Assembly: GCA_016432365.1 (NCBI GenBank)
Contig: CP066686.1
Span: forward strand, 410,906 to 474,905
DNA length: 64,000 nucleotides
Origin: Candidatus Woesebacteria bacterium
GTDB taxonomy: Bacteria > Patescibacteriota > Microgenomatia > UBA8517
Reading direction: 5' to 3'
Shown here: piece by piece, positions 16,702 through 51,108 of the stretch
Position numbering within the stretch: the first letter of the stretch is position 1
How the letters are laid out: every line of letters starts with the position of its first letter
Made by a program: the position numbers and the translations under genes
Notes under the pieces: model-generated
What the model saw: only the letters and a program-made list of their open reading frames with translations
Database searches by the model: none
What the model was told of the DNA's origin: nothing

Positions 16702-16722
16702 TGATACAATTATTTTGCCGTG
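16702..16722 (+). promoter_or_regulatory. Extended -10 TGaTACAAT, 9 nt upstream of GTG start 16720.
   Basis: Same TGn-TAnAAT-N9-start pattern as at 6561 and 8602. Confidence 0.35.
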
Positions 16723-17169
16723 CAACAGTTTTCCCAGATCTTAAGTTTTATCAGCCGGAGCTTTAATTTAAATCTCGGCAAGTTTTCTATCCCTGTAACT
16801 TATTGGGAGGTAGGCGCAATAATTTTTCTCATTTTCCTTTTAATTTTGAGTATGGCTCAGTTTAGACGCCATTATGTGGACTATGGTCTCAAGGGGGGTA
16901 TTTTCGGTGTGGTTATTGGATTCCTACTGGCCTTAGTTTTGGAAGGATTTTTGATTGTCGGGGGCAAAACCGCCGTGACTGAGTTTTTAGGCTGGAAAAA
17001 CGCTCCAAAGCCTTTGCAGGTAGCCTTAGATGCCGGCAAAACCCAACTTATTCAGGTTTTGGGAGTAAGTAGTCCGGACAACTCCACATTCCAGGGTGCT
17101 TTGGAAAATATTCAGACTTTAAGCCCCGCGGACCTCAAAAAGGTCAAAAGCCTCATCTGCCAACCCTGA
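16720..17169 (+). CDS. Hypothetical membrane protein, 149 aa.
   Basis: Two TM helices then a soluble tail; GTG start. Confidence 0.45.
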   Translation: MQQFSQILSFISRSFNLNLGKFSIPVTYWEVGAIIFLIFLLILSMAQFRRHYVDYGLKGGIFGVVIGFLLALVLEGFLIVGGKTAVTEFLGWKNAPKPLQVALDAGKTQLIQVLGVSSPDNSTFQGALENIQTLSPADLKKVKSLICQP

Positions 17170-17206
17170 CCCATAGTTTGACTTTCTGGTGTGTTTTTGA
17201 TATAAT
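17170..17206 (+). promoter_or_regulatory. Sigma70 promoter cccatagtTTGACT-N17-TATAAT.
   Basis: TTGACT 17178-17183; TATAAT 17201-17206. The cccatag upstream element matches the promoters at 1550, 2333 and 18610. About 95-nt leader with AGGAGG RBS before GTG 17300. Confidence 0.55.
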
Positions 17207-17299
17207 AGCCCTTCGTTGTTAGTTTTTCGTTGTTAAGTACATTAACAGCTTCAAGAGAAAATAATTCAAATTCAACACTTACCTTGAAAGGAGGCAAAA

Positions 17300-18472
17300 G
17301 TGAACGAAAGATTTAGAGTCAACTTGTTTGACTGTACCAATTGCGGAACGACCAAGATCTATGCATTTCTTCACGAATGTCCTGGTTGCGGAACCCCGAA
17401 TCCTGGCCAAGGTCATTGGTATCCTGGGCCCTATGTGACTGATATCAAAATGTTGCAGCTTGCGGCCAAAGAGCCTTTTTGGAAGTGTTCCCATTGTGAA
17501 GGATCAAACTTCGGAGAAGACAAAAGCAAGGGCTGTCAGCATTGCGGACATGAATACGACCCGAGCGATATCAGCGCAAAAGTTATCCCAGGCGGAACCA
17601 GCCAAACGAACGCTCCAAGGCGTCCGGCTGTGCACGATTCGTCCTATTATGTTCCTGCCGATCTTCCCTCACCCAAGGTCGTTCATTCCAGCCCGAGTTA
17701 TCAGCGGAGCATGGTCAGTTCGCTGCCTAGTTACAAAAGTAGCGGCAGGAGTGGACTGAGGCTTGACGGACAGACGCTTGGAATTGCGGCAGTAATCTTG
17801 GTGATAGTTGCTCTTTTGGGGGCATTTTTGTTCGCCAAGTTTCACACAACTGCACACAATGCTGAGTTTACTGGGCCTTCTTGGACGCGGTCATTCGACG
17901 TTCAACGGTTTGAGGTTGTACATGAATCAGACAGCACATCCAACCCTCCAGCTTCGGCCTACAACATAGATTCTTGGGTTACCACTGAAAAAAAAGAGGT
18001 GACACGGTCGGAGGAATATACAGTTCCAAAAACCTGCCACCATAGTGAAGATTTGGGCAATGGATTTACTCGCGAATGGGACGAAGACTGTAGTTATACT
18101 GCTACAAGACAGGTCTTTGATCACTACGATTACATCGACACAACTCACTACAGTTACGATCACAATGAGTGGGTTTTTTACCGGACTATCAGCGAGAGTC
18201 GAGACAACTTCGAGCCGTTTTGGCCTGCTTACAACCTAAATCTGGAGGGCCAGACTGTTCTCGGCGCTGAAAGAGCGGTGAATTATCGTGAAACCTACAC
18301 GCTCAAATTCGATTGGTACGATAAAGATGAAACCAAATTTACGGCTATTTATAAGGTTTCTGAGGCCGAATGGCACCAGTATGTTGTTGGTGAGTACTAT
18401 CCGATCGAAGTAAATAGCCTGGGTGAAGTCAGGAACAATCCTCTTCAGGATAAACTTAACCCGCCGGAGTAA
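17300..18472 (+). CDS. Double zinc-ribbon membrane protein with an extracytoplasmic C-terminal domain.
   Basis: CxxC...CxxC twice (CTNCG...CPGCG; CSHCEG...CQHCGH), then a Pro/Ser linker, one TM helix and about 200 aa outside. First gene of the higher-GC island. Confidence 0.55.
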   Translation: MNERFRVNLFDCTNCGTTKIYAFLHECPGCGTPNPGQGHWYPGPYVTDIKMLQLAAKEPFWKCSHCEGSNFGEDKSKGCQHCGHEYDPSDISAKVIPGGTSQTNAPRRPAVHDSSYYVPADLPSPKVVHSSPSYQRSMVSSLPSYKSSGRSGLRLDGQTLGIAAVILVIVALLGAFLFAKFHTTAHNAEFTGPSWTRSFDVQRFEVVHESDSTSNPPASAYNIDSWVTTEKKEVTRSEEYTVPKTCHHSEDLGNGFTREWDEDCSYTATRQVFDHYDYIDTTHYSYDHNEWVFYRTISESRDNFEPFWPAYNLNLEGQTVLGAERAVNYRETYTLKFDWYDKDETKFTAIYKVSEAEWHQYVVGEYYPIEVNSLGEVRNNPLQDKLNPPE

Positions 18473-18609
18473 ATCTCTTGAAGCTTTAGTTGAACCTTGG
18501 GACTGGAAAGTCAATTTGTCGATCTTTGACACGTTGATACTACCAGTCCCTGTTTGTTTTTCCCCATAATTTTTAATTTTAAATTATTAATTATAAATTT
18601 ATGTTTCAT

Positions 18610-18647
18610 CCCATAGCTCTTGACTTTTTCTATTTTTCTGGTATACT
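18610..18647 (+). promoter_or_regulatory. Sigma70 promoter cccatagctcTTGACT-N16-TATACT.
   Basis: TTGACT 18620-18625; TATACT 18642-18647. The long leader carries the aacatcttgagattc motif at 18721-18735. Confidence 0.45.
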
Positions 18648-18778
18648 TGCCTCACGTCTTTTGACTGGGAAACCGGTCAGTTTTTTTGCGACTGGGATTT
18701 CAGTGTAAAAAGTGAACATTAACATCTTGAGATTCAAAGATAGTTAAAACATTTCAAAAAGGTTCAAGGAGGAACCAA

Positions 18779-20482
18779 ATGAATAAGCGAAACAGATTCT
18801 TCAAAATCCTGTTTGCAGTGGCGGCCATCATAGCTGTCACAGTTGCCTGCGGTGGTGGATCTGGTTTGGCGACCGATAATGGCGCTTTGCGCATTGTTGC
18901 CGACCCCACCATTCAACTTCTCGATTCCAACGGAATTCTTTCGTCGTGCGGCGTGCCGTACACGATCGAATACCTTGGATCCGTGGAGATGAAACTGAAA
19001 GTCCAGGATTATTCAACAAGTAATCCAGGCGATGTGGACGTCTTCTGGGCCGCTAGTCCAATTTGGCTTCCCGGCAGTTTTGTGGTTAACAAAACCCCAA
19101 TCATGGGCTCGTATGTCGTGTTTGGAGTTAACCCGAATATTGCCTCGCAGTTCGGTTGGAACCCGGTCAATGGCGTCTATTTCAACAACATCATGCAGGC
19201 GTCAAACTCCCGTGCGTTATCATTGGGGATAGCTTCGGCTTCACAAGATGACGCGGCCGCTAATTTCAATTTAGCGGGGCTTACGGCGCTTAAAGGTACC
19301 GGTGAGCCGTTGTATGCTGAGGACCTGGGCAATCCGGCGATTACCGATCCGATGAAGACTTTCTACTCGAACGTCTCTCTCGGATCCAATCATTCCGGCG
19401 ATCTGGCTACGAAGTTTGTTGCGGATCAGTTGTCCGGCAATCCCCAACTCAACAGTTTTGTACTGCCTGAGGCGATGGCCATTTCGGTTAATCAGCAGTT
19501 GACTGCCAAAGGCGCAAGCCCGATGACTGTCTTCTATGTTAAGGACGCGGTCGGTCTGCAAAGCTTTACCATGGGTTACACCAAGGATTCAAGTGATGCC
19601 AAGCAGGAAAGTTTCAATACGCTTGTAAAGTGCTTGACCTCTGCCGATACACAGAAGAAGTTACAAAACCTTGGTTTCCGTGCCGGTGGCGTTGGTATGA
19701 AGATCGAAAATCCCAATACTAGCGTTTTCAATCCCGCTTGGGGATTCGATGGTACGGCGGAATATCTTACCGTGAATCTTCCGAAGTTTCCGGTGATCGA
19801 AACCGCCCTCAACACCTATCAACTTGCGTGGAAAAAGCCGTCTTGTACTGTCTATGTTTTGGATTTTTCTCCATCCATGGACCCTGATGGGAGAGCTCAA
19901 CTCCTGGCCGCTATGAAGCTTTTGCTCGGCCCGGATGCAGCCAAGTACACTCTGCAGACAGGACAAAATGATTCGACTTACGCTGTTACTTTTGCGGATC
20001 GAATCTTGTCGCAGTACTCTGTGAGTGGCAACGATGCCGCCAGTTTGTATGCGGAAACGCCAGCTGATCAACTGCGATATGCACCGAACGACGCGAAAAA
20101 AGAAAATCCGCTCAATCCTTACGACGCAAATTCGCTCTTTGGAAAGATCTACTATGAACCGTTTGGTAACGCAACAGACATTTATGGATCCGTTGTTTAC
20201 GGACTTCAATTGGCTGTTCAGAATTGCAGAGCGGATCAGCTTCCAGCGGTTGTGTTTCTTACCGACGGTGAGCGTACTGCCGGGCCCAAATATTCGTATC
20301 TTAAGGATTTTGTGAATGATAACAACTTACAGATCCGTGTGTATGCGATTTTGATGGGCGACGCGGATGAAGGGGTTTTGGCTGAGATCACGGCACTTAC
20401 CAAAGCAGGCGAACCTTGCGATGGCCGTACAGGAGAAGACGCACTTGTGCGTTGTTTCCGCAATATCCGAGGCAGTAACTGA
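18779..20482 (+). CDS. Lipoprotein with a C-terminal von Willebrand factor A (VWA) domain.
   Basis: Signal peptide plus lipobox-like AVTVAC. MIDAS motif DFSPSM (DxSxS) and the downstream LTDGE motif. The N-terminal 330 aa shows weak similarity to ORF 20500-21603. Confidence 0.65.
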   Translation: MNKRNRFFKILFAVAAIIAVTVACGGGSGLATDNGALRIVADPTIQLLDSNGILSSCGVPYTIEYLGSVEMKLKVQDYSTSNPGDVDVFWAASPIWLPGSFVVNKTPIMGSYVVFGVNPNIASQFGWNPVNGVYFNNIMQASNSRALSLGIASASQDDAAANFNLAGLTALKGTGEPLYAEDLGNPAITDPMKTFYSNVSLGSNHSGDLATKFVADQLSGNPQLNSFVLPEAMAISVNQQLTAKGASPMTVFYVKDAVGLQSFTMGYTKDSSDAKQESFNTLVKCLTSADTQKKLQNLGFRAGGVGMKIENPNTSVFNPAWGFDGTAEYLTVNLPKFPVIETALNTYQLAWKKPSCTVYVLDFSPSMDPDGRAQLLAAMKLLLGPDAAKYTLQTGQNDSTYAVTFADRILSQYSVSGNDAASLYAETPADQLRYAPNDAKKENPLNPYDANSLFGKIYYEPFGNATDIYGSVVYGLQLAVQNCRADQLPAVVFLTDGERTAGPKYSYLKDFVNDNNLQIRVYAILMGDADEGVLAEITALTKAGEPCDGRTGEDALVRCFRNIRGSN

Positions 20483-20499
20483 AGAAAGGAAATTATACA

Positions 20500-21603
20500 A
20501 TGAAGCGAAACCAACTTTTCATTGTCGGTGCGGCCCTGATGCTACTGGTCTTGGTGGCCATCGTGGTTGTACCGAATGTTTTCAAGACAACCCCCAAGAC
20601 TACAATCACGTGTCTGGGCGGACAAGTCTTTTTGGCCGATGAAGGTATGCAACAGCGCCTGCTGGATGAGTACAACATCGAGGTCAAATACGTTTCCTCC
20701 GGATCCTTTGAAATGAAGGATAAAGACCTGACTGGTATTGACTGTGCCTGGCCCGGAAGCGCCCCAGCGGCAGCCGATTTTGTCAGTGCGCACAAGGACA
20801 TCGTGCTTAAGAAAGATACGATGTTCCGTACGTTCAACCTGTTCTTCACCCGCAAGGATCTGGGCTACGAAGATGCTTTTATCAAAGCAGGTTACGTTTA
20901 CCAGAAAGACGGAGCCGACTTTATGCCCATGGCGCCCATTATCGAAGCCATGAAAGCTCACAAGACATGGGAAGAAATTGGCGTTCAGGGCGTGCCGGGA
21001 TTCGTGAATATCAAGTATTCTGCCCCGGAATCGTCTGGCGGCGGTCTGCAGCACCTGTTCTTGCTTTGCAGTTACCTTATGCCTGGCGGTGAGAACGGCG
21101 GACTTCCGTGCGATGCTGCAAATTTGGGCCCCGTATTACCGACTCTGGTTGACAACTGGAATTTCCAGGGTGGGCAGACCGGCTCAAGTCCCGAGTGGTT
21201 CAAGGCGTGGCTGCAAAACAGCAGGAGCCTTCCTTTGGGAGCAAGTTCAGAAAGTCTATTCCTGGGCTACTACAATCAATTGCCTGCCGATCAGAAAAAG
21301 GCTGCACTGGACGACATCGTCGGTATTTATTCGGAATGGACGATTGGAACTGACCATGTCTTCATCGCGATTACACCCAACGGTGTGAGACTGCTGGAGA
21401 TTTTGCAATCGGATCCATATTTCGCCCAGCGTGCATGGGATGCCTATGGTATGCGCACCGCATTCGGTGGCCTTGGCGCTAAGCCCGGACAAACGGATGT
21501 TCCTTGGATCGTCGCAGAGCCGCTTGCAATAAGCGAGCCCAAGCAGGATGCTACACAAATGATCACCTGCGCGATCAATCCCGCGAAATGCGCACCCAAG
21601 TAA
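20500..21603 (+). CDS. Signal-anchored extracytoplasmic protein, possible paralog of the N-terminal domain of the VWA lipoprotein.
   Basis: N-terminal TM/signal. YVSSGSFEMKDKDLTGIDCAWPGSAP resembles YLGSVEMKLKVQDYS...DVDVFWAASP in 18779-20482. Confidence 0.5.
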   Translation: MKRNQLFIVGAALMLLVLVAIVVVPNVFKTTPKTTITCLGGQVFLADEGMQQRLLDEYNIEVKYVSSGSFEMKDKDLTGIDCAWPGSAPAAADFVSAHKDIVLKKDTMFRTFNLFFTRKDLGYEDAFIKAGYVYQKDGADFMPMAPIIEAMKAHKTWEEIGVQGVPGFVNIKYSAPESSGGGLQHLFLLCSYLMPGGENGGLPCDAANLGPVLPTLVDNWNFQGGQTGSSPEWFKAWLQNSRSLPLGASSESLFLGYYNQLPADQKKAALDDIVGIYSEWTIGTDHVFIAITPNGVRLLEILQSDPYFAQRAWDAYGMRTAFGGLGAKPGQTDVPWIVAEPLAISEPKQDATQMITCAINPAKCAPK

Positions 21604-21770
21604 GTTGAATCTCAAGATTTAGTTTTACGGCGACCGCGCTGACATTTAGGCCATTAATTTGGTAAAATGTCAGCCGGTCGCCAGATTCATTGAGTTCAGA
21701 AATCATTTCTGGATTCAAAAATCATATTTTTGCACGTTAACATCTTGAGATTCTAAGAAAGGAGTAGCTC
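21604..21770. repeat. Structured intergenic repeat element E1.
   Basis: Contains gaatctcaagat (21607-21618), ttttacggcga, a 19-bp inverted repeat (21629-21647 / 21665-21682), a cagaaat-c-atttctg hairpin (21696-21711) and aacatcttgagattc (21739-21753). Homologous to E2 at 23789-24019. Confidence 0.55.
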
Positions 21771-22394
21771 ATGAGCGATGATTTCAAAGAGAAAGTGGCA
21801 GCTAACGCCGGCATTATTGCCATCGTGTCCGCCACGATCATGTTTTTGATTTCCTATTTGGTGCTCAGTAACGTAACACAAGGGAACTGGTTGAAGTCAC
21901 TTGTAGTGGCAGCGGTTTTCTTTGGTGTTACTGTCTTGGGCGTCTGGTTGATGGCAAGCCAAGTGGTTGATGCCTATACTCTGGACGCGGCAGACAACAT
22001 CGGCGACGTGAACAACCAGTTGAAAAGACTGCGTGGTTACGCGATGGAAATCAAAGATCCTGCGGTTAAAGCGATTCTTGGCAAGATCAGCAAGGATACC
22101 GTCGCACTTGTCAAATTCACCCGTAGACACCAACCATCGTCATTGCTGTCGTGCGCGACCGTGCTTGAAGCATGGTTTGAGATGATTATCAAAAACGCGG
22201 CAAAATGTGCTGAGGTTGGACAAGAAACGGATTACTTCAAGAATCAAAGTGCGATCTACAAAACTGCATTGAAAGGATTTGAAGGCTTCGATCAATTTTT
22301 GATCAACAGCATAAATCTAATCACTGCAGGTTCCGATCCTGAATTTGAGGCCAATTCCAAGATGCTTGACGCATCGCGGTTCAACCTGATCTAG
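21771..22394 (+). CDS. Two-TM protein with helical C-terminal domain; candidate XpaC-like (5-bromo-4-chloroindolyl phosphate hydrolysis protein family).
   Basis: Two N-terminal TM helices plus an alpha-helical cytoplasmic domain, immediately upstream of a candidate TelA-like gene. Called from architecture and neighbourhood only. Confidence 0.4.
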   Translation: MSDDFKEKVAANAGIIAIVSATIMFLISYLVLSNVTQGNWLKSLVVAAVFFGVTVLGVWLMASQVVDAYTLDAADNIGDVNNQLKRLRGYAMEIKDPAVKAILGKISKDTVALVKFTRRHQPSSLLSCATVLEAWFEMIIKNAAKCAEVGQETDYFKNQSAIYKTALKGFEGFDQFLINSINLITAGSDPEFEANSKMLDASRFNLI

Positions 22395-22483
22395 TTAGTC
22401 GAAGTGCGGCTAGGTCGACACATCCAATTTTCAAGAATTCGAGCTAAAACTAGCTCGTTTCTATTCATATCTAAGGAGATAAA

Positions 22484-23788
22484 ATGAACGTTGATCCCAA
22501 CAAACCCGGTTTGTCAGTTGATGTCACCCCTGTTCCAGTCGCCCCCGCAACGGATGTTCTGTCCAATGTGGCGAGTGCGCCAAATGGTCCTCAGGGCGTC
22601 GTGGCTCGTGACCTTCTGGACGGTAAAGCGCAGATCAAGGCCGACAGAGAAGCGGAAGGCGACTTTGTTGCCCTTTTCGAAAACGCCGAAGCGCTTACGA
22701 ATTACGGCAACACCGAACTCGAGCCGCTCAACAAGCTGATCGACGACGCTGCCGCGCAAATTCCCCCAGTCGTCATCCCTGAACTGCAGGCCAAGATGGG
22801 CGAATTGCATCGGGATATGCGCAAACTTTCCGGCAAGTATGACATGGGCAATCCCAAGGTCATCGCCTGGGTTCGCGATTCCGTGGCTGGCATCAAGCGG
22901 GGCTGGTTCACCGGAGAGTCCATCTTTGATGCCATCCTCTTCGATGCGAAGAACACTTACCAGAAGCTCGACACGGTCAAGGCTGTTGTCAAGCCGAAGG
23001 AATTGCAGGCTGTCAAGAATGTTGGGCTGTTGGACACTTTCTATCGTACCAACGATTCGGAAATCCTGGCCCTCATCTATCGCATTGCGGTTATGGAATC
23101 GATCCAAAGCCTCGGCGAGGCTGCCGCGCGCAACATCAAAGCGGATCCCGGAAAGCCCTCGGATCAGCCTTTGATCACGAAGCGCAATTTGTTGACGGAG
23201 TTCGCCAACAACATGTCGCTGAAAAGTTCCAGTTTCAAAGGCCGCCTGTTCCTTGGTTGGGCAAACGGTCCTCAGTTGATCACCAAGCGCACGTTGAACC
23301 TTTCGCTCGCCGTTCGCTTGAACATGATCACCAACGTTTCCCTCCCGAGCGTCAAATTCGCGGTCGAACAGTGGGAACTGGCGATTCAAATGCAACAACT
23401 GGCCAGCATCATCGAGTTGACCGAGAATTTCAACAATGAAGTTCTGACCCAGGCTGCCAAAGCCGGCGCTCAGGTTGCCGCTTACGTTGTTGATACGACC
23501 CAGGCCCCTGCCTTGCGCCCGGAGTCCATCAAAGCAATCGCAGACGCCATTGCTTCCCAGGCTGACGCTACCGCTCAGGCATACGTGCTTGGCCTTCAAC
23601 GCCGCCAGGAAGCCGATAAGGCAATCTTCGATTCGCAGAAGCTTATCGCCAATTCACAGAACAAGGTTTCGGACGCGTTCTTGAACAAGGTGATCGCGAA
23701 TGCGAACACGGCACGCCAAGTCGCCCGCAACGAGCAAAACGAATTGCTCGCTCTGGCGAAGCAGGTTCCCGCGGCCGCCGCTGCGTAA
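22484..23788 (+). CDS. Candidate TelA/YaaN-family (toxic anion resistance) protein.
   Basis: 434 aa, predominantly helical, Ala/Gln-rich C-terminus. Its size and pairing with an XpaC-like gene match the conserved xpaC-yaaN arrangement. Not verified by alignment. Confidence 0.45.
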   Translation: MNVDPNKPGLSVDVTPVPVAPATDVLSNVASAPNGPQGVVARDLLDGKAQIKADREAEGDFVALFENAEALTNYGNTELEPLNKLIDDAAAQIPPVVIPELQAKMGELHRDMRKLSGKYDMGNPKVIAWVRDSVAGIKRGWFTGESIFDAILFDAKNTYQKLDTVKAVVKPKELQAVKNVGLLDTFYRTNDSEILALIYRIAVMESIQSLGEAAARNIKADPGKPSDQPLITKRNLLTEFANNMSLKSSSFKGRLFLGWANGPQLITKRTLNLSLAVRLNMITNVSLPSVKFAVEQWELAIQMQQLASIIELTENFNNEVLTQAAKAGAQVAAYVVDTTQAPALRPESIKAIADAIASQADATAQAYVLGLQRRQEADKAIFDSQKLIANSQNKVSDAFLNKVIANANTARQVARNEQNELLALAKQVPAAAAA

Positions 23789-24019
23789 CTGAATCTCAAG
23801 ATCTAAAAAGAGGTGGTAGACCATTTAAAACGGTTTACCACCTCTGGTACTTTTACGGCGATCAGCCAAACTTTAGTTGTCCCCCTGGACTTCTACCGTT
23901 TGACTGATCGCCCGATTATTTGAGTACAGAAAAATCTTAAATTTCTGTCATCAAACAGATCGAATTTCGTTTCACAAATCGCACATTTCCATATTCAAAA
24001 AAAGAAAGGAAGAAGCATC
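23789..24019. repeat. Structured intergenic repeat element E2.
   Basis: gaatctcaagat (23791-23802); hairpin agaggtggtagacc/ggtttaccacctct (23809-23845); ttttacggcga plus inverted repeat ggcgatcag/ctgatcgcc (23857-23912); acagaaa...tttctgt hairpin (23926-23948). Confidence 0.55.
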
Positions 24020-24502
24020 GTGAAAACGTATCAGTTATTGATCTTTCTGGGAGTGATCCTTGGTTTGGCAATAGGAGTTGCTTCCCAGATCCACCAGCTT
24101 CAGGGCATGTTATCCAACATTGGCAATTTTATTGTCGATTTGTTGGTGTTTGTAGTGACCCTCGTTGGTGCCGGATTTTTGGGCTGGTTGGCCAAAGCAT
24201 ACGGCATCGCGGCTCTCGACATCAATGTTTGGCCGGAGAAAAACATGACTGCCAATCAAAGGTACGCGATTTTATCGGTACTTCTATTGGCTACATTCTT
24301 CGGTTGGATTTGGGTGGCTATGGCCCTTGTCGTTCCCGGAAGTTGGATGTATGCAATTGGAACCGATGGGTTTTGGTGGTCCGGCGCCTTTGAAACACCG
24401 CCCGTTTTATGGGGTGTTTGGGGTGCAGTATCATTTCTGATTGCATGGTCTTCCACAGACCACCGACCGGGTTATCGCCTTTTCAACGGCGAAGCTGACT
24501 GA
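24020..24502 (+). CDS. Hypothetical 4-TM membrane protein, tandem paralog A.
   Basis: GTG start with RBS AAGGAAG. Shares WLAKAYGIAALD..W.EKNMT...W..G...W.G.FETPP..WGVWGA with the next gene. Confidence 0.5.
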   Translation: MKTYQLLIFLGVILGLAIGVASQIHQLQGMLSNIGNFIVDLLVFVVTLVGAGFLGWLAKAYGIAALDINVWPEKNMTANQRYAILSVLLLATFFGWIWVAMALVVPGSWMYAIGTDGFWWSGAFETPPVLWGVWGAVSFLIAWSSTDHRPGYRLFNGEAD

Positions 24503-24515
24503 AGGAGAAAAGATT

Positions 24516-25058
24516 ATGAATAAACAGCAGTTTGGTCTTGTTGTTGCGGTCATTGTGGCTGTGATTTTAGGGATAGGTTATATGATCCCTCAGTCACATT
24601 CTCTGGTTGACGTAGTCGTCAAGATTTTCGTGGGAATAGTGATGTTTGTCGTCAACCTTGCGGTTTTCCTGCTGACTCTGGGTGGAGCACTTCTCTTGGC
24701 CTGGCTTGTTAAGGCCTATGGTATTGCTCTGCTGGACATGAAGGTTTGGAAAGAAAAGAACATGACAGATGGACAGCGCATCGGCATTGGAGCAATCTTG
24801 CACGTTCTTGCTTTCGTGCTCTGGGTCGGCGCTCCCTACCTGCTCATTCAACCTGGTACCTGGATGTACTGGATTGGTACCCATGTTGGATGGTATGGCG
24901 TTTTTGAAACTCCTCCCATCTGGTGGGGAGTCTGGGGTGCACTTACCTTTTTCTTCGGTTGGTACAATACGGATCACGAACCGTTTTACCGAAAACTTGA
25001 GAGGTGGGAGGAAGAGCGTGAAGACAAGGCTCGGAGGCAGCGAGATGCCAGTAACTAA
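24516..25058 (+). CDS. Hypothetical 4-TM membrane protein, tandem paralog B. ORF-track start 24441 is upstream in frame.
   Basis: ATG with RBS GAAGGAG. Clear paralogy to 24020-24502. Confidence 0.5.
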   Translation: MNKQQFGLVVAVIVAVILGIGYMIPQSHSLVDVVVKIFVGIVMFVVNLAVFLLTLGGALLLAWLVKAYGIALLDMKVWKEKNMTDGQRIGIGAILHVLAFVLWVGAPYLLIQPGTWMYWIGTHVGWYGVFETPPIWWGVWGALTFFFGWYNTDHEPFYRKLERWEEEREDKARRQRDASN

Positions 25059-25413
25059 TACCATTTCCGGCGATATCTTTTTGATCACCTTGCCCGGCTT
25101 TCCGGACCTAGTGATTGACCCGGCCGACGTTGAGGAATTGGAGAATGCCTCCTTTTACCGAGTCAGCGGCGTGTTGATTGATGACTTGGTAACGTTCATT
25201 GTGACCCCGTATTTCGGAGGTTCTTACTTGAGCGTAACGTATACCGATGGAGATCGGGTTGAAGATGATTCTACGCGTGGCCGTGGTGAATGTCACTTCA
25301 CCCATACGGTGAAGCAGGACGAGGAACGAGTTTCGCTTGAAATATGGTCGGGTGAAAAATCCGATGCAAATAACACCAAGCGGACAGTTGTCCTGATCTT
25401 TAATGTGAAGTAG
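25045..25413 (+). CDS. Hypothetical small protein, about 122 aa.
   Basis: ATG at 25045 overlaps the upstream stop by 14 nt. This is the 3' part of ORF-track 24769-25413, whose 5' part is antisense/out-of-frame overlap and is rejected. Confidence 0.3.
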   Translation: MPVTNTISGDIFLITLPGFPDLVIDPADVEELENASFYRVSGVLIDDLVTFIVTPYFGGSYLSVTYTDGDRVEDDSTRGRGECHFTHTVKQDEERVSLEIWSGEKSDANNTKRTVVLIFNVK

Positions 25414-25460
25414 TTTCCGGCCCCGATCGGGTTTTAATAACCTGACCGGGGCTTTTTTTT
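25414..25460 (+). terminator. Rho-independent terminator closing the higher-GC island.
   Basis: Palindrome cccgatcggg followed by tttt, and gccccg...cggggc followed by tttttttt. Confidence 0.6.
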
Positions 25461-25484
25461 GGCAAAATGAGATATAATTCAGTC

Positions 25485-26537
25485 ATGCAGGAACTTAAAC
25501 AAAAAGTTGATGAGCTTTTGATCCGCCTAAATAAGCTGATCGAGGTTATTGGTCTTCCCGAAAAAAAGCAAAAAATAGTCGAGCTTGAGGCTAAGGCGTC
25601 CGAGCCTACACTTTGGGATGATCCAAACCAGGCACGTGCAGTTACCCAGGAGCTTTCGGACATTAAAAAGGAAGTAGATGAAATTTCCGATCTAAAAAGC
25701 ACCCTGGAGATTCTAACCGAGGTTCAGGACGAGGAAGAGGTCAAAAAGGCCGAAAAGACCCTAGCCAGGCTGGAGCTTGTATCCTATCTTTCAGGAGAAT
25801 ATGATGCCAAGAATGCCCTAATTTCGATCCATGCGGGCCAAGGAGGCACGGAGGCTATGGATTGGAGTAATATGCTATACCGCATGTATCTACGTTTTTG
25901 TGAACGTAGGGGATGGCCCACGGAGAACCTAGATTATACCTCGGGCGAGGAAGCCGGTATTAAGAGTGTTACCTTCAAAGTTACAGGGCATTATGCCTAT
26001 GGCTACCTAAAAAGAGAGGCGGGAACCCACAGGCTGGTGCGTCAGTCTCCTTTTAATGCGGATAAGCTCAGACAAACCTCGTTTGCGTTATGTGAAGTCA
26101 TGCCTGAACTAACCGATACAGACCTCCATGACATGGAAATTAAAGACAGCGACTTAGAATGGCAGTTTATTCATGCCGGTGGGCACGGGGGTCAGAATGT
26201 TAATAAAGTTGCTACAGCGGTCCGACTTACCCATGTTCCATCAGGAATTGTGATTACAGCTTCAACCGAACGTTTTCAGGAACAAAATAGAAAAATAGCC
26301 CTGGATCTTCTTCGCGGAAAACTATGGATTAGACAGCAGGAGATTGAAAAAGGAGTCAAAAAGGAAATTAAAGGGGACTATCGGCCTGCTTCCTGGGGAA
26401 CTCAAATCCGTTCCTATGTTTTACATCCATATAAAATGGTAAAAGATCTTCGTACTCAGGTAGAAACCGGCAATACAGATGCGGTTCTTGACGGAGAGAT
26501 AGATGAATTCATAGACGCGGAGCTTAAACTTCATTAA
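25485..26537 (+). CDS. prfB: Peptide chain release factor 2. ORF-track start 25467.
   Basis: GGQ motif (HAGGHGGQNVNKV) and the RF2-specific SPF tripeptide (RQSPFNAD). A TATAAT box lies 6 nt upstream of ATG 25485. Contiguous ORF, no +1 frameshift site. Confidence 0.9.
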   Translation: MQELKQKVDELLIRLNKLIEVIGLPEKKQKIVELEAKASEPTLWDDPNQARAVTQELSDIKKEVDEISDLKSTLEILTEVQDEEEVKKAEKTLARLELVSYLSGEYDAKNALISIHAGQGGTEAMDWSNMLYRMYLRFCERRGWPTENLDYTSGEEAGIKSVTFKVTGHYAYGYLKREAGTHRLVRQSPFNADKLRQTSFALCEVMPELTDTDLHDMEIKDSDLEWQFIHAGGHGGQNVNKVATAVRLTHVPSGIVITASTERFQEQNRKIALDLLRGKLWIRQQEIEKGVKKEIKGDYRPASWGTQIRSYVLHPYKMVKDLRTQVETGNTDAVLDGEIDEFIDAELKLH

Positions 26538-45705: not shown

Positions 45706-47188
45706 ATCTTCATTGGTATTCAATTATCTTCTGATTATAATTTTGGGATTGGGGGCATTCCTCCGGTTATATAGGATTAATGAACTTCTAGGCTTCTGGT
45801 TCGATCAAGGGCGTGATGCGTTAGTTATCTGGGACCTTTTACATAACGGTAAGTTTTTTTTAATAGGGCCAACAACAGGGCTTGCCGGAATTTTTAGAGG
45901 TCCTTGGTATTATTGGTTGATTACTCCATTCTATTGGATAGGACGCGGAAATCCCGTTTATCCTTCGATTTTTTTGATATTTACGACGATTGCTGCTCTG
46001 GGAGTAATTTACTATTTGGGTTACAAAATTCAAGGAAGAGTTACGGGACTAATTGCGGCGACGATTGCCGCTTTCTCCTTTTATATAATTGAAGCATCAA
46101 GATGGTTGTCTAACCCCACTCCAATGCTTCTATTATCTCTTGTAATGGTTTTTGGAATGTATATGGTTGTGGAAGGAAAAAAATGGGGATGGTCAATAAT
46201 CTCTTTTTGTTTTGGTTTATCGCTTTTTAATTTTGGTTCATCGGGGGAATTTTTTTATTTTCCAGTATTGTTGATTTTTACCATTTGGCAAAAGAAAAAT
46301 TGGCCGGATTTAAAAAACTTATTATTTTCTGTATTGTTGTTTATAATCACTTTTGCTCCTTTAGTAATTTTTGATTTTAAACATGATGGGATTTTAAGAA
46401 ATAATATTTATCAATCATTTGTATCCGAGAAGAGCTTCATCGTTCCGACAAAAAAGTTTTTAGTAGAAAGGACTGTTATTTATTATGACGTTTTTACAAA
46501 AAAAATATTTGATGCCAGGGGGGAGAGAGAAAAAATTACCCTGAGCATAATTGCTTTATGGTTTTTGGTTTCAACCCCAAAATATTTAAAGAACAAAAAT
46601 ATTTCTCTACTAATTTTGTTTCTTGTCTCTCCGATTGTCGGATTGTATTTTTACCAGGGCAACAATGCGGTCTTATACGATTATTATTTCACCGGATACT
46701 ATTTAATATTTGTTTTATTGCTTGGAATAGTCTTAGGTAATATGTGGAAATTTACCATAGGAAAAGTTTTTGTATTGTATTTTATTTACTTGTTTATAAG
46801 CGCAAATTTTTCAATTCTCTTACCAAGATTAACAGAAAGATCTACCAATATTAATAGTGTAATAATTTTGAGTGATCAGAAAAAGGCAATAGAGTGGGTT
46901 TATAACAACGCCGGCGATAGAAACTTTAATATTGATGTATATGTGCCGCCCGTCATACCCTATGCATATGACTATTTATTCAAATGGATCCCCACTACGC
47001 CAAGGCTTCGCGGGGCAAGTGGTAAACTTACTGAAAATCAAACTTCCTTACTATATACTTTGTACGAGGTTGATTTGGCCCACCCCGAACGAATCGGTGC
47101 TTGGTTAGAAAGGCAGAAAGGAATTGGTAAAGTCTTAAAAGAGGAAAATTTTGGAGGAATAGTCGTGCAAGAAAGGGTGAGAATCTAA
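45689..47188 (+). CDS. GT-C (ArnT-like) membrane glycosyltransferase, paralog 2.
   Basis: FDQGRDALVIWDL ... GPTTGLAGIFRGPWYYW. Confidence 0.6.
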   Translation: MRKKIKSSLVFNYLLIIILGLGAFLRLYRINELLGFWFDQGRDALVIWDLLHNGKFFLIGPTTGLAGIFRGPWYYWLITPFYWIGRGNPVYPSIFLIFTTIAALGVIYYLGYKIQGRVTGLIAATIAAFSFYIIEASRWLSNPTPMLLLSLVMVFGMYMVVEGKKWGWSIISFCFGLSLFNFGSSGEFFYFPVLLIFTIWQKKNWPDLKNLLFSVLLFIITFAPLVIFDFKHDGILRNNIYQSFVSEKSFIVPTKKFLVERTVIYYDVFTKKIFDARGEREKITLSIIALWFLVSTPKYLKNKNISLLILFLVSPIVGLYFYQGNNAVLYDYYFTGYYLIFVLLLGIVLGNMWKFTIGKVFVLYFIYLFISANFSILLPRLTERSTNINSVIILSDQKKAIEWVYNNAGDRNFNIDVYVPPVIPYAYDYLFKWIPTTPRLRGASGKLTENQTSLLYTLYEVDLAHPERIGAWLERQKGIGKVLKEENFGGIVVQERVRI

Positions 47189-47193
47189 TTAAG

Positions 47194-50100
47194 ATGAACA
47201 AAAGCTGGTTAAAAATATTAATTTTTACTTTTTTGATTGGAGCTGTGATTTGGGCCGGAAAGGGAATCTTTAAATACAGTATTTTTAGCACCCATGACGG
47301 TGACCACCACATTGCCCGTGTTTTCGACGTAATTCAGACTGCTAAAGAGGGGCAGTTTCCATTAAGATGGGCGGGGAGTCTTGATTATTTTTGTGGTGTT
47401 CCAATTTACAATTTTTTCTATCCTTTAATTTATTACCTCGCAGCTGCAATATATCCATTTGCGAAAGATGTAATTTTTACTCTTAAAATAATTAACTTTT
47501 TATCACTCCTTTTAGGGACACTGTTTTTCTATTTTTGGATTAGGACGGAGACAGATAAAGAATTACCGGCCATTGGTGGAGCACTTACTTATTTATATGC
47601 ACCTTACCGTTTTTCGCTTATTTTTGTCAGGGGAAGTCCTGAGTATCTTGCATACGCAATTTTACCGATCGTTTTGTTTTTTTATGCCTTGTGTTTTAAA
47701 TCGAATGGTAAAAGGTTTGTCGTTTATGCTTTCTTGGCAGGTTTGACGGGTGCCATTCTTACAATTTCCCACAATTTTGCGGCGATGTTTTTAATGCCGA
47801 TAATCCTCGCATATTTGATAATTAAGATTTGGCTTTACAAGTTTAATCTTTCAAAAATAGCTTGGATTGCATTTTCTTTTTTGAGTTCGTTTGGGTTGGG
47901 GTCTTTTTTCATCGGTCCGGCATTGATGGAACAGAAATTTACCCAGATCGGCTTAAATTTTATCCAGTGGCGAGAACACTTTCCAACATTAGGACAACTT
48001 CTTAAATCAAATTGGGGTTATTTCTATTCATCATTGGGGACTGCAAATGACGGAATGAGTTTTATGTTGGGGTATGCGCAGTGGCTAATTATTGGTATCG
48101 GGGGAATATTTATTCTATTTATTTTGGTTCAGATTTTTCGAAAGAAAGTTAAGCTTTGGGAATCCGTTAAAGAAAATATTTGGGTAATTTTCTATCTTGT
48201 CGCATCGCTTTTCACTATTTATCTAATCCTCCCTATATCAATTCCACTTTGGGAGAAGATAAAGCCGCTGCAAGAGATTCAATTTTCCTGGAGACTTTTG
48301 GGGGTCGCAGTTTTTACGACTAGCGCTCTTTTTTCTTTTACGTTGGCAAAAATCAGGACGAATTATGTTTATATAGCTCTTTTCGTTGGTGTAAGCTTTT
48401 TGACAGTTTTTGGTACAAGAAATTTCATGTTGCCGCAACCGGTTTCGAGCGAAGATGTTTATAGGTATACCGACTACGAAAAACTTCATCCACATAGATA
48501 TTCTACAACTACATTAGGAGATGACGTGATCTCTGCAGGGGCGAAAAAGGCATGTTGGTTTTCAACGCCCCCCGTATCTACAAATGTCGATGAAAAAATT
48601 GATTCGGTAGTTGTGGAAAAAGGCAACACATTTGGATCTATCAAGTTTTCGATAGATAAAAACAAAATAAAAGGAGACAAAATTGTTATTCGTTTGGGAT
48701 ATTTTCCGGATATTCACAACATTTCACTAAACGGTGGAAGTTATTTAAAATACTCAAATTGTAATGGACAAGTTTGTTTTGATGCCGGGAATACCAAAGA
48801 TGGAGAAAATTTTGTTTCTTGGAAAGTGGGTCAGAGTAAAATTGAAAGCACATTCAATTACCTGACGGTGGCGTTTCTAACATTCTGGTTAATGCTTCTA
48901 GTGATTTTTCTGACCGGAATTAACAAAGACAGGAAAAAATTAATATATTTTGTTTTGTTGGCAATCACATTTTTCATTTTTATGTTTTTTAGAAGTTATA
49001 ATTTGCTTGGTCGGGTCGGTTTTGGTTGGGACCAGGAGAGAGATGCTTTGGCTACTACGAATATTCTTGCCGGGAAATTCACACTTCTAGGTCCTAGAGT
49101 TCAGGGCCCTGCCGGTTTTTTTCTTCCTCCATATTTTTTCTACATGCTTGCACCCTTTTACAAACTATTTAACTTGAGCCCCCTGGCTACCGGCGGATTC
49201 ATTGTTTTTTGGTCAATTCTGACTTTTGTTGTAAGTTATTTAGTAATTTCCAAAGTCTTTAATAAAAAGACAGCGCTGATTTTCTTGGCGCTTTGGGCAG
49301 TAAACCCCTTAAGTGTCTCCGTTGACACGATTGCCTGGAATCCTGTAATGGTTCCTCTTTTGTTTGTTGTTTTGATTTATTTAATTTACCTTTATCTTAA
49401 AAAGACAAAGGCGAAATACATTTTCTTGACCGGAATAATCTTTGGAATGGGTTTAAGTTCCCATCTTCAATTTTTGTTAATTACCCCGGTATTTATTCCG
49501 TTGTTGATAGATATATTTAAAAATAAAAGATTAAAGGACGTTGCCTTTCTGGTTTTGGGATCCGTGATACCTTTCTTTCCAATTCTACTTTTTGATTTGA
49601 GACATAATTTTTTAAATTTAGGTCAAATAGCAGGTTTAGTTAAAAGCGGAGGAGAAGGTGCTAGTAGGGTGATGATAGTTTGGGAAAGAGCCTCTTCCTT
49701 TATGGTGGGTGGCTCACCTTCGGTATTGCTGGGAACTTTAATTTACTTAATCGTTTCGATAGGCCTTTTTATAATTGCAAAGAGAATTAAAAACATTGAT
49801 CAGGGGAAAATTTTGCTTAGCTTGGGTAGTGTCTGGGTCACAAGTCTTCCTCTCTTTTATATATTGATAAAAAGTCCGTCGGAATATTATTTTAATTATT
49901 TACTGATTCCTTTTATTTTTTTTATAAGTCTTTTGCTCAAAAATTTGAAAAGTCTTGGAGTATTAATATTAGCTGGAATTATGATTTACTTTATTTTCCA
50001 AGCTAGGCCGTTACTAAAAGATGTAGCGTTAAGTTTAAGAGAAAAGGAACAGGCTGTTAGTCTTTTGAGTAAAGTAACCCAGAAATCGAGCCCTTTCAAT

Positions 50101-50310
50101 ATTTCTTTCGATGTGCCGTTTAATGAAGATACGGGTTTTAGATACCTTTTAAATTATTATAAAATTAATTATTCGGGAAGCCCCAACGATCCGTTGATAG
50201 AATTCGTAATCCCGCGTCAAAAAAGGCCGGTTACATTTGCTTTCACACAAATCGGAATTTTTATTCCGCCTCAGTGGATGAAAACAAACTGGTCGGTTAG
50301 GACTAAGTAA
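47194..50310 (+). CDS. Two-module polytopic membrane protein, 1038 aa: an N-terminal module related to the gene starting at 63390, and a C-terminal ArnT-like GT-C module.
   Basis: The N-terminal THDGDHHIARV...FPLRW...NFFYPLIYY parallels MQDDLQAFRVY...IPCRW...NFYPPLPYY at 63390. The C-terminal WDQERDAL...GPAGFFLPPYFFY matches the paralogs at 43136 and 45689. Confidence 0.55.
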   Translation: MNKSWLKILIFTFLIGAVIWAGKGIFKYSIFSTHDGDHHIARVFDVIQTAKEGQFPLRWAGSLDYFCGVPIYNFFYPLIYYLAAAIYPFAKDVIFTLKIINFLSLLLGTLFFYFWIRTETDKELPAIGGALTYLYAPYRFSLIFVRGSPEYLAYAILPIVLFFYALCFKSNGKRFVVYAFLAGLTGAILTISHNFAAMFLMPIILAYLIIKIWLYKFNLSKIAWIAFSFLSSFGLGSFFIGPALMEQKFTQIGLNFIQWREHFPTLGQLLKSNWGYFYSSLGTANDGMSFMLGYAQWLIIGIGGIFILFILVQIFRKKVKLWESVKENIWVIFYLVASLFTIYLILPISIPLWEKIKPLQEIQFSWRLLGVAVFTTSALFSFTLAKIRTNYVYIALFVGVSFLTVFGTRNFMLPQPVSSEDVYRYTDYEKLHPHRYSTTTLGDDVISAGAKKACWFSTPPVSTNVDEKIDSVVVEKGNTFGSIKFSIDKNKIKGDKIVIRLGYFPDIHNISLNGGSYLKYSNCNGQVCFDAGNTKDGENFVSWKVGQSKIESTFNYLTVAFLTFWLMLLVIFLTGINKDRKKLIYFVLLAITFFIFMFFRSYNLLGRVGFGWDQERDALATTNILAGKFTLLGPRVQGPAGFFLPPYFFYMLAPFYKLFNLSPLATGGFIVFWSILTFVVSYLVISKVFNKKTALIFLALWAVNPLSVSVDTIAWNPVMVPLLFVVLIYLIYLYLKKTKAKYIFLTGIIFGMGLSSHLQFLLITPVFIPLLIDIFKNKRLKDVAFLVLGSVIPFFPILLFDLRHNFLNLGQIAGLVKSGGEGASRVMIVWERASSFMVGGSPSVLLGTLIYLIVSIGLFIIAKRIKNIDQGKILLSLGSVWVTSLPLFYILIKSPSEYYFNYLLIPFIFFISLLLKNLKSLGVLILAGIMIYFIFQARPLLKDVALSLREKEQAVSLLSKVTQKSSPFNISFDVPFNEDTGFRYLLNYYKINYSGSPNDPLIEFVIPRQKRPVTFAFTQIGIFIPPQWMKTNWSVRTK

Positions 50311-50325
50311 TATACAATAGTTAAT

Positions 50326-51108
50326 ATGAGAAAAATTTTCCTCTCAGTCGTGATCCCAGCTTACAATGAAGAATATAATTTGCGTACAGGCGTATTGGAT
50401 TCGGTCTATGACTATTTAATTAAACAAAAATATACCTGGGAGATTTTATTTGTTGATGACGGTTCCACAGACAATACTGCAAAATTGGCATTGGATTTTG
50501 CGAAAAGTCATAAGCAAAGCTTGGCAAAATCAGAATATGGTAAAAACTTTTTGGTTCTCAGCGAACCACACAGGGGTAAGGCGGGGACTGTTATCGCTGG
50601 TGTATTGGCAGCAAAAGGAGAGATTGTTCTTTTTACGGATACGGACCAGGCAACTCCGATTGATCAAATCGCTAAAGTATTACCGAAATTTGAGAGTGGT
50701 TATGATGTGGTCATTGGATCGCGACACGGGCGCGAGGGCGCTCCACTAATTCGTAAAATCATGGCCTGGGGATTTTCTTTTTTGAGACTTTTGGTTTTGA
50801 GACTTCCGTATAAAGACACCCAATGCGGGTTCAAGGCTTTTTCGAAAAATGCCGCAAAAGAGATTTTTAAACGTCTCGAAATTTTTGATTCAAAAAACAA
50901 AAACGTGGGCGCTTCAGTTACGGCGGGTTTTGATTTGGAAATTTTATATGTGGCCCGTAAACTTGGCTATAAAATTGCCGAGGTTTCCGTAGACTGGCAC
51001 CACAAAGAGGGTACAAAAGTTGATCCGATTAAAGACTCGATTGAAGGTCTTCGTGGACTTATTATGGTTCGTATCAATGCACTTCAAGGAAAATACAGGC
51101 GTTCATGA
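50326..51108 (+). CDS. GT2 glycosyltransferase (polyprenol-phosphate sugar synthase-like).
   Basis: LSVVIPAYNEEYNL, VDDGSTDNT, DTDQATP. Confidence 0.8.
   Translation: MRKIFLSVVIPAYNEEYNLRTGVLDSVYDYLIKQKYTWEILFVDDGSTDNTAKLALDFAKSHKQSLAKSEYGKNFLVLSEPHRGKAGTVIAGVLAAKGEIVLFTDTDQATPIDQIAKVLPKFESGYDVVIGSRHGREGAPLIRKIMAWGFSFLRLLVLRLPYKDTQCGFKAFSKNAAKEIFKRLEIFDSKNKNVGASVTAGFDLEILYVARKLGYKIAEVSVDWHHKEGTKVDPIKDSIEGLRGLIMVRINALQGKYRRS

Follow-up and report, generated by a model that had tools for sequence, protein, structure and literature searches.

How does a block of DNA that departs in composition from its surroundings come to lie between two native genes of a Candidatus Woesebacteria bacterium, and what might it do for its bearer? 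The question is raised by positions 17170-25460 of a 64,000-nucleotide stretch of the 1.08-Mb contig CP066686.1 (positions 410,906 to 474,905, forward strand, of the metagenome-assembled genome GCA_016432365.1; hereafter the window), where a preliminary description, made from the sequence alone, had seen a horizontally acquired island built around a candidate XpaC/TelA pair and a lipoprotein with a von Willebrand factor A (vWA) domain. The explanation that best fits the locus as a whole, and that is probably correct, is that the island is an acquired, mosaic islet that encodes a four-component envelope module and is organized by conserved cis-elements.

The jump in guanine-plus-cytosine (GC) content over both flanks, first noted by eye, is real (0.487 for the island and 0.394 for the remaining window) and is accompanied by shifts at third codon positions and in tetranucleotide usage. 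Mean GC content at third codon positions (GC3) is 0.554 for the eight open reading frames (ORFs) of the island and 0.364 for the 44 other ORFs of the window (Mann-Whitney p=5e-9); the lowest value among island ORFs is 0.483, and the highest outside it is 0.487, in the adjoining gene w149. Tetranucleotide L1 distance to the background reaches 0.35-0.45 within the island and is 0.13-0.20 outside. All eight of the co-oriented genes originally listed are present on the forward strand, each preceded by a Shine-Dalgarno-like sequence: Zn390 (17300-18472), VWA567 (18779-20482), SBP367 (20500-21603), Xpa207 (21771-22394), TelA434 (22484-23788), m160 (24020-24502), m180 (24516-25058) and o122 (25045-25413). 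The promoter proposed at 17170 and the terminator proposed at 25414-25460 likewise have counterparts in a promoter-like site at 17178-17206, with 11 of 12 consensus positions and a TG extension, and in a hairpin and T8 run at the island's right edge that together resemble an intrinsic terminator (~25416-25460, forward strand).

The island is placed exactly between its native flanks w149 (16720-17169, forward strand), which encodes a 149-residue membrane protein with two transmembrane (TM) segments and has orthologs in place in 15 related loci, and prfB (25467-26537, forward strand), which encodes the PCRF and RF-1 domains. When the species genomes of GTDB were scanned with TGT, a protein encoded in the flank, 23 related loci emerged (loci are designated here by L numbers), onto which the flanking and island proteins were mapped. 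In eight related Woesebacteria/Microgenomates genomes, with TGT proteins 71-80% identical, the site is empty: w149 adjoins prfB directly, across a gap of 20-75 bp, in the gene order TGT - LytR_C - w149 - prfB - w154 - FtsE - FtsX. The closest relative, L008 (TGT 90-91% and prfB 92% identical), carries at the same junction a cargo of ~6 kb (L008:12387-18423) that has nothing in common with the window island, and a cassette related to that of the window stands straight after w149 in three more contigs of the Woesebacteria type, L001, L035 and L036. In a TGT tree that took in the window, L001 and L035 among cassette carriers (L036 is without a TGT gene), these three fall in three different clades, each of which also holds empty-site relatives. 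The w149-prfB junction is a recurrent insertion hotspot, a conclusion that is well supported, and because eight sites are empty and the closest relative holds a different insert, acquisition of the window block at this hotspot, after the split from L008, is well supported as well. Thus the horizontal acquisition put forward in the preliminary description is borne out by foreign composition, the eight empty sites in which the block is absent, the alternative cargo of L008 and the three separate TGT clades. Moreover, GC3 of the window SBP gene is 0.59, against 0.40 in L001 and 0.46 in L035 despite 84-86% protein identity, which suggests recent residence in a higher-GC genome.

Some observations weigh against acquisition. 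No tRNA gene was found in positions 10000-32000 of the window, no direct repeats were found at the island borders, and a Pfam scan found no recombinase domain in the island ORFs; furthermore, the donor is unsampled, the best matches from outside the candidate phyla radiation (CPR) being only 47-62% identical for TelA and 38-54% identical for the VWA and SBP proteins. A genomic island of the integrase type is rejected, integrase, tRNA gene and flanking direct repeats all being absent. If the DNA were instead native, with an odd composition that reflects selection on amino-acid content or expression level, the presence of the cassette at the same site in L001, L035 and L036 could be read as ancient vertical inheritance, and the proteins of those copies have indeed diverged about as far as those encoded in the flanks. 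However, it is at synonymous sites that GC3 is shifted by +0.19, and eight relatives closer than L001 and L035 are empty, while the closest relative of all has other cargo. Vertical inheritance would need at least five independent losses, and the window copy would have stayed unameliorated while the copies in L001 and L035 were largely ameliorated. A native origin is accordingly judged quite improbable.

The first component of the acquired module, VWA567 (18779-20482), is a 567-residue lipoprotein predicted to combine a ModA-like domain of the solute-binding protein (SBP) type, SBP_bac_11, with a vWA domain at the C terminus whose metal ion-dependent adhesion site (MIDAS) is intact. No variation was seen among 27 relatives at the lipobox cysteine C24 or at the residues D362-x-S364-x-S366, T466 and T495-D496-G497, and homologs carry PF13531, present in most of them, plus PF00092/PF13519. 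Against known structures, the family profile matches the VWA domain of CLCA1 (2e-9), ITIH and BatB (range 2e-9 to 8e-5), and its N-terminal part matches ModA structures at 1e-6; the direct match of VWA567 to SBP_bac_11 is weak (E=0.026). The lipoprotein with a C-terminal VWA/MIDAS domain was therefore correctly recognized from the outset, the MIDAS residues being invariant and the profile matching vWA structures. Its vWA domain, with the intact MIDAS, is closest in sequence to those of the BatA/BatB and CLCA proteins, but VWA567 differs from these in its N-terminal ModA-like domain, its lipoprotein anchor and its TelA/XpaC context. The second component, SBP367 (20500-21603), is a 367-residue SBP-like protein with an N-terminal TM membrane anchor, and its orthologs are present in every cassette. 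Aligned by hhalign with the SBP domain of the VWA567 family (probability 97.7%, E=1.5e-12, 331 columns), SBP367 is, by profile comparison, a remote paralog of that domain, as had been suggested for the gene that follows the lipoprotein.

The remaining two components are more divergent from known families, represented in Pfam by PF10112 (Halogen_Hydrol, XpaC) and PF05816 (TelA, toxic anion resistance protein). Xpa207 (21771-22394, forward strand) is a 207-residue protein with a predicted TM hairpin (residues 14-32 and 44-62) and a cytoplasmic helical bundle; in its AlphaFold2 (AF2) model, with a predicted local distance difference test (pLDDT) score of 92.5, the second TM helix runs on into the bundle. 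The family comprises four clusters in a word-indexed search, and a profile search of 1.84 billion representatives extends it to 91 relatives, with PF10112 matched by 34 of the 82 that were scanned (best E=2.7e-15). P0064, which the family profile retrieves at E=1.4e-13, itself matches PF10112 at 3e-6 over positions 6-166 of 191, colinearly, and the position-equivalent genes in L033 and L038 are PF10112-positive. At the level of the family, Xpa207 is thus a divergent XpaC relative of the Anaerolineales type, within the XpaC superfamily. Its gene is followed immediately on the 3' side by TelA434 (22484-23788, forward strand), encoding a 434-residue, all-helical, cytoplasmic protein with no TM segments and six homolog clusters among 5.8 billion proteins. 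PF05816 is matched by an ortholog from L028 (47% identical, 38.7 bits) and by P0006 (53% identical, 32 bits), the cutoff being 30; P0003 and P0002 fall slightly short of it. The orthologs tested are 47-55% identical to TelA434, and their PF05816 matches span profile positions 11-320 of 332, which places TelA434, again at family level, in a divergent TelA subfamily.

These assignments have to be set against what the window proteins yield by themselves. In direct Pfam scans Xpa207 has no XpaC match, VWA567 has no VWA match and TelA434 does not match PF05816 at E<=1; the AF2 model of TelA434, although all-helical, is poor (pLDDT 50), and a profile search of PDB finds no solved relative of its family. 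PF10112 is also not matched at E<=10 by any of the four closest members of the Xpa207 family, and no informative structural neighbor was found for the Xpa207 model. The sole direct signal for TelA434 is PHROG 5890, 'tellurite resistance', at E=1e-4, which was also all that PHROGs yielded for the eight island proteins; NCBIfam and PADLOC scans of the eight were uninformative. A tblastn search of plasmids with a TelA-like ortholog found nothing. The xpaC-telA pair of the preliminary description consequently stands at family level, through orthologs and profiles, but not in direct Pfam scans, and the same division runs through the proposed check against PF05816, PF10112 and VWA models, in which direct matches were absent, an outcome that, read to the letter, would have told against the functional claim, and family-level tests were positive for each.

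The identification of the pair gains from its context, since the four genes travel together. The conserved unit is, as judged from its sequence relatives, a four-gene membrane module of SBP-vWA, SBP-like, XpaC-like and TelA-like genes whose range extends from loci of the Bradyrhizobium type to those of the Anaerolineales type. Among the latter, contigs L002, L003 and L028 (GC 0.51-0.55) have the order VWA-XpaC-SBP-TelA, and the module is also found in L031, L032 and L037 (GC 0.43-0.52), the top Pfam match of the position-equivalent helical proteins in L031 and L032 being TelA. The high-GC, Bradyrhizobium-type locus L033 comprises TelA (PF05816), SBP-vWA, XpaC (PF10112) and an SBP-like member; in L034 the genes are an SBP-like one, TelA (PF05816), SBP-vWA and one of 211 aa, and L038 has SBP-vWA, XpaC (PF10112) and a 363-aa gene. 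The association of XpaC/TelA with VWA proteins that had been put forward at the outset is therefore right, the SBP-vWA gene of L033 sitting between Pfam-certified TelA and XpaC. Profile searches confirm the orthology of the SBP-like and SBP-vWA proteins and pick up the XpaC-like proteins weakly; the TelA and XpaC components evolve far faster than both SBP-type components. The extent of the module had been drawn too widely: XpaC, TelA, VWA and SBP genes are conserved together, but the zinc-ribbon gene, the membrane paralogs and the small ORF fall outside. No description of an SBP-vWA/SBP/XpaC/TelA module was found in the literature, a comparison in which Anantharaman 2012 was not included. XpaC-TelA pairing and TelA-vWA linkage are of kinds already known, and the window instance is a divergent, mosaic, acquired CPR variant of them.

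The mosaic character of the cassette emerges from identity matrices calculated for each component across cassettes. The VWA and SBP proteins of the window and L001 group with those of L035 and L036 (53-64% identity for VWA, 68-89% for SBP), and are 38-54% identical to those of L031 and L032 and ~25% identical to the Anaerolineales type. The XpaC and TelA proteins of the same two cassettes are 43-53% and 47-62% identical, respectively, to the Anaerolineales type (43-46% for Xpa207 and 53-54% for TelA434 of the window itself), and have no BLAST-detectable similarity to those of L035, L036, L031 and L032. The window and L001 share the gene order VWA-SBP-XpaC-TelA, as against VWA-XpaC-SBP-TelA elsewhere. 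By these comparisons the window and L001 cassettes are mosaics of Woesebacterial-type VWA/SBP genes and Anaerolineales-type XpaC/TelA genes, and the simplest reading is that a foreign-type XpaC-TelA pair replaced the resident pair as a unit, with the gene order changing in the process.

The most novel element of the locus is a set of covarying motifs found at the ends of its operon units. The 12-mer GAATCTCAAGAT or its complement occurs in four exact copies in the window, all of them in intergenic sequence of the island, against 0.47 expected with one mismatch allowed. Two copies stand in leaders, at 18724 and 21742, and two stand 2-4 nt 3' of stop codons, at 21607 and 23791, such that each two-gene unit of the window has a copy of the 5' motif before it and the complement behind it. 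The same bracket arrangement is found around nine units in seven loci, with the partners 2.0-5.0 kb apart: two units each in the window and L001, and one four-gene unit each in L035, L036, L031, L032 and L037. The island-specific repeats noted earlier are thus real, in four copies, but they are conserved cassette cis-elements and not scars of a mobile element.

The sequences that surround these motifs are conserved in a definite order. A cassette promoter at 18606-18647 (forward strand) consists of CCCATAG, TTGACT, a 16-nt spacer and TGgTATACT, and its -35 and extended -10 boxes are invariant in four Woesebacterial leaders and recognizable in L031, L032 and L037. Between this promoter and the 5' motif lies a terminator- or attenuator-like leader hairpin with U7 (18661-18687, forward strand), equivalents of which, mostly with a U-run, are found in L035, L036, L031 and L037. 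The 5' motif block of unit 1, TTAACATCTTGAGATTC, follows at 18713-18743 on the forward strand (core 18724-18735), and the leader that holds the 5' site has the conserved order promoter, U-run hairpin and then TTAACAnCTTGAGATTy.

Between the SBP and XpaC genes, a structured intergenic element (21604-21770, forward strand) joins the 3' motif of unit 1 (21607-21618) to the 5' motif of unit 2 (21742-21753), and a 12-bp stem formed by this motif pair could enclose two hairpins (~21629-21682 and ~21684-21723). The predicted fold has a minimum free energy of -68.7 kcal/mol (z=-8.95, here and below relative to shuffled sequence), and the ortholog in L001 adopts the same fold (z=-6.4), with 0 of 41 predicted pairs broken and 7 double changes. 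A trailer element behind TelA434 (23789-24019, forward strand) contains the 3' motif of unit 2 (23791-23802), hairpin 1 (23809-23845), hairpin 2, GGCGATCAG...CTGATCGCC (23857-23912, forward strand), and hairpin 3 (~23919-23955); its fold has z=-8.5, and z=-9.9 in the L001 ortholog, with 0 of 50 predicted pairs broken and 6 double changes. The trailer is also found 3' of the TelA-like gene in L035, L036, L031, L032 and L037, the 3' site being followed by a conserved GGCrATC...GATyGCC hairpin and CGAUUUUU. One further detail of the SBP-XpaC element and its counterpart (L001:9124-9302) is the tetranucleotide TAAG in the window, or TAAGA in L001, outside both terminal inverted motifs. These flanks resemble the target-site duplication of an insertion like that of a miniature inverted-repeat transposable element (MITE), and are perhaps coincidental, as the stop codon is part of one copy and a ribosome-binding site borders the other.

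Across genomes the motif varies, while the two ends of any one unit match: both units of the window have GAATCTCAAGAT, unit 2 of L001 has AAATCTCAAAAT, L035 has AAATCTCAAGTT, and L036, L031 and L037 have TGAATCTCAAGT. Only two end-to-end mismatches were found, in unit 1 of L001 and in L032, and compensatory double changes occur at three pair positions in a concatenated alignment of eight units. Covariation between the ends is 0.194, compared with 0.097+-0.020 for shuffled alignments (0 of 500 as high) and 0.013-0.092 for slid registers. The intergenic elements have no Rfam match, and they were not found in the Anaerolineales-type and high-GC cassettes.

The preferred reading is that the 5' motif pairs with its complement in the 3' untranslated region (UTR), an interaction that may control stability or processing of the mRNA. 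A precedent for such pairing is the hbs mRNA of B. subtilis, in which a 14-bp contact that links the 5' UTR with the 3' UTR has been documented (PMC5737220), and the two cases share a complementarity of 12-14 nt between the leader and the region just past the stop codon of one transcription unit. Pairing of the window type, however, would span 2-5 kb of polycistronic mRNA and is a prediction from sequence; in addition, the cassette motifs covary over seven loci and are duplicated around two sub-operons in the mosaic cassettes. Weighing against mRNA pairing is that covariation between ends could also stem from a process at the level of DNA. The complementary motifs might be inverted repeats at which recombination inverts gene pairs or exchanges them, or else MITE-like relics. 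Inverted 12-mers that are identical within a unit and differ among genomes are what recombinational homogenization would give, the XpaC-TelA pair has been exchanged as a unit precisely between two motif copies, and the spacer between the SBP and XpaC genes resembles a unit of ~150 bp with terminal inverted repeats and TAAG flanks. Yet there is no recombinase gene in or beside any cassette, all nine units share one orientation relative to the promoter, both motifs always fall inside the predicted transcript, 3' of the promoter and 5' of the terminator-like hairpin, and both of the end-to-end mismatches are U.G on the sense strand. The element is moreover specific to cassettes, with no occurrence elsewhere within ~500 kb of related DNA. 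A DNA-level origin is possible on this evidence, at well below even odds, and pairing of mRNA ends is the reading retained here.

What the module does may be approached from its predicted topologies, from which we infer an arrangement of an outside pair, a coupler in the membrane and a helical effector inside. The outer pair of the SBP type, the VWA567 lipoprotein and the anchored SBP367, would bind or sense a ligand, which could be an oxyanion, a guess made because of the ModA-like fold, or a metal-dependent partner in the envelope that binds by way of the MIDAS site. The XpaC-like TM hairpin would couple the outer pair to the TelA-like protein at the inner face of the membrane, and the outcome would be protection from membrane or envelope damage, in line with the XpaC-TelA pairs of Firmicutes. 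Expression would be governed by the conserved promoter and leader, together with the complement of the 5' motif, placed right after the stop codon with a terminator-like hairpin behind it. Tentatively, and at well below even odds, the four genes could form an unrecognized trans-envelope sensor-effector system that in one clade is expressed under a new kind of cis-element, which pairs operon ends over 2-5 kb and also marks the boundaries of gene-pair exchange.

The analogy to Firmicutes rests on several lines of published work. In B. subtilis, xpaC-yaaN are part of the core of the sigma-W regulon, which responds to envelope stress (PMC3498285); a telA mutant of Listeria has higher sensitivity to nisin and tellurite, according to the part of PMC12791056 that cites Collins 2010; and xpaC and telA of E. 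faecium affect daptomycin binding and membrane lipid domains (PMC6811118). Like these pairs (B. subtilis xpaC-yaaN, Listeria lmo1966-1967 and that of E. faecium), the window pair consists of a 2-TM XpaC gene and an adjacent, co-oriented TelA gene downstream. It differs in that its proteins are too divergent for direct recognition by Pfam, in that its host is a CPR bacterium, and in that it is accompanied, within a module of four genes, by two SBP-type proteins that are extracytoplasmic and of which one is fused to vWA. By this analogy, envelope-stress protection is the likely function of the module, and a role in toxic-anion resistance or membrane stress is suggested in the same way.

A second point of comparison is provided by the Ter systems, for which the relevant part of PMC7824862, citing Anantharaman 2012, relates that TelA and a vWA protein have been proposed to form sub-membrane structures. 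As in those systems, with TerF/TerY, a TelA-family gene is linked with a vWA/MIDAS gene in the window, and a membrane-proximal, metal-dependent complex is proposed for both. The vWA protein of the window, however, is a secreted, SBP-fused lipoprotein, unlike the cytoplasmic TerF/TerY, and the analogy is loose because of this extracytoplasmic location, which counts against the function proposed here. Pfam and NCBIfam searches found no TerB, TerC, TerD or Ter biosynthetic genes among the island ORFs, and no TerB, TerC or TerD genes occur among the called genes of the cassette loci; identity with a Ter cluster was rejected for want of TerB, TerC and TerD.

The Ter connection also bears on whether the module might be an anti-phage or abortive-infection system that occupies a defense-type hotspot. 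Resistance to phages and colicins has been connected with Ter/TelA systems (PMC7824862), TelA families are found in phage genomes, with TelA434 matching PHROG 5890, and L008 has at the junction a toxin-antitoxin-like pair together with a transposase, as variable defense hotspots typically do. PADLOC matches to island proteins, on the other hand, are only spurious zinc-ribbon hits or weak, the cassette lacks a nuclease, an NTPase and any other of the usual effectors, and in L031-L034 it lies among housekeeping genes. A defense function is for these reasons unlikely. Less likely still, and indeed highly improbable, is that the SBP-type proteins are components of solute uptake that merely neighbor TelA and XpaC. 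The SBP_bac_11/ModA-like fold is typical of the binding proteins of ATP-binding cassette (ABC) importers, but a permease or ATPase gene is found in none of ~12 cassette loci, the four genes remain linked across phyla despite rearrangements, and the SBP domain is fused to vWA. With both transporter genes absent from the cassette loci, an ABC-importer reading was rejected, and envelope-stress protection remains the favored function.

The other four genes of the island, Zn390, m160, m180 and o122, are lineage-specific passengers that share the foreign composition and lie outside the conserved module; neither co-occurrence with the four-gene module in other loci nor any homologs were found for them. 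Zn390 (17300-18472, forward strand) has, as initially described, two zinc ribbons, formed by four CxxC motifs, and a single TM segment (residues 160-178), followed by a C-terminal outer domain of ~210 residues. It matches Pfam Zn_ribbon_15 at only E=0.0013, its GC3 is 0.483, it was found in no other cassette locus, and no relatives were found in PDB or viral contigs. The signature CCCATAG...TTGACT-17-TATAAT at the left end of the island (17172-17206, forward strand), 5' of Zn390, resembles the leader of the cassette in a duplicated, degenerate form, because the CCCATAG/TTGACT signature also stands 5' of the VWA gene in all type-A cassettes, and the Zn390 gene may have inserted into, or been captured behind, such a duplicated leader. 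Within 17172-17299 the CCCATAG-TTGACT promoter is followed by ACATTAACAGCTTCAAGAGAAA, comparable to ACATTAACATCTTGAGATTCAA in the cassette leader, and the Zn390 leader also contains a perfect tandem direct repeat, two copies of TTCGTTGTTA at a spacing of 14 nt (17212-17235).

At the other end of the island, m160 (24020-24502, forward strand) and m180 (24516-25058, forward strand) encode tandem paralogs of 160 and 180 residues with 3-4 TM segments. Their paralogy, as claimed, is firm (45-54% identity, E=1e-33 to 1e-40), but the four TM segments ascribed to them are not, as a hydropathy scan gives three strong segments in each and no clear fourth. No family matches were found for m160 in Pfam, NCBIfam, PHROGs or PADLOC, and no relatives of m180 were found on viral contigs or in PDB. 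A small membrane-protein gene follows the trailer element in L001 and L036, at the position that m160/m180 occupy in the window; the short fragments visible there have no detectable similarity to m160/m180. The small overlapping ORF, o122 (25045-25413, forward strand), was also correctly called: it encodes a soluble protein of 122 residues, overlaps the end of m180 by 14 nt, and has its own GGAGG 6 nt 5' of the ATG and an in-frame GC3 of 0.553, with no family or PDB matches.

Several features of the surroundings may be recorded here. The true start of prfB is probably the ATG at 25485 rather than the listed 25467; orthologs begin at this second ATG (MQELKQ in the window, MQEFKQ in L008), and a TATAAT at 25473-25478 ends 6 nt 5' of it, with TATACT at the equivalent place in the empty sites of relatives, which suggests that the prfB mRNA is leaderless or has a very short leader. 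The prfB ORF is continuous, the usual programmed +1 frameshift being absent. In the L008 insert, genes with GC3 of 0.54-0.62 encode lipoproteins of 655 and 306 residues and a multi-TM protein of 266 residues; the insert also holds a ribbon-helix-helix (RHH) antitoxin-like gene, a gene for a toxin-like protein of 82 residues and, at GC3 0.29, one for a 213-residue IS200/RAYT-like HUH transposase. The sole recombinase near any cassette is a tyrosine-integrase gene (Phage_integrase; L037:3177-4031) on the opposite strand, ~3 kb 5' of the cassette, and 3' of the cassette in L031 is a gene (L031:10998-12113) for a 371-residue lipoprotein whose SPFH/Band 7 domain (Pfam E=1e-5) represents another membrane-microdomain family. 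Elsewhere in the window, positions 46000-53000 have a GC content of 0.32-0.36, against a window average of 0.41, and a mildly raised tetranucleotide distance of up to 0.205; this low-GC stretch contains an ORF of 1038 residues (47194-50310).

For the XpaC-TelA pairs, which influence resistance to nisin, daptomycin and tellurite, the locus provides a setting in a four-gene module with a MIDAS-bearing outer protein, and suggests an architecture in which an outside sensor acts through a TM coupler on a helical effector inside. For CPR biology it is a clear example of genes gained at a defined hotspot, in a genome of ~1 Mb, with a gene pair replaced from a Chloroflexi-type source. The covarying 5' and 3' motifs, if they act as RNA, would be a rare bacterial instance of long-range pairing between mRNA ends that has been kept across lineages, and if they do not, they would mark a new recombination-site system.

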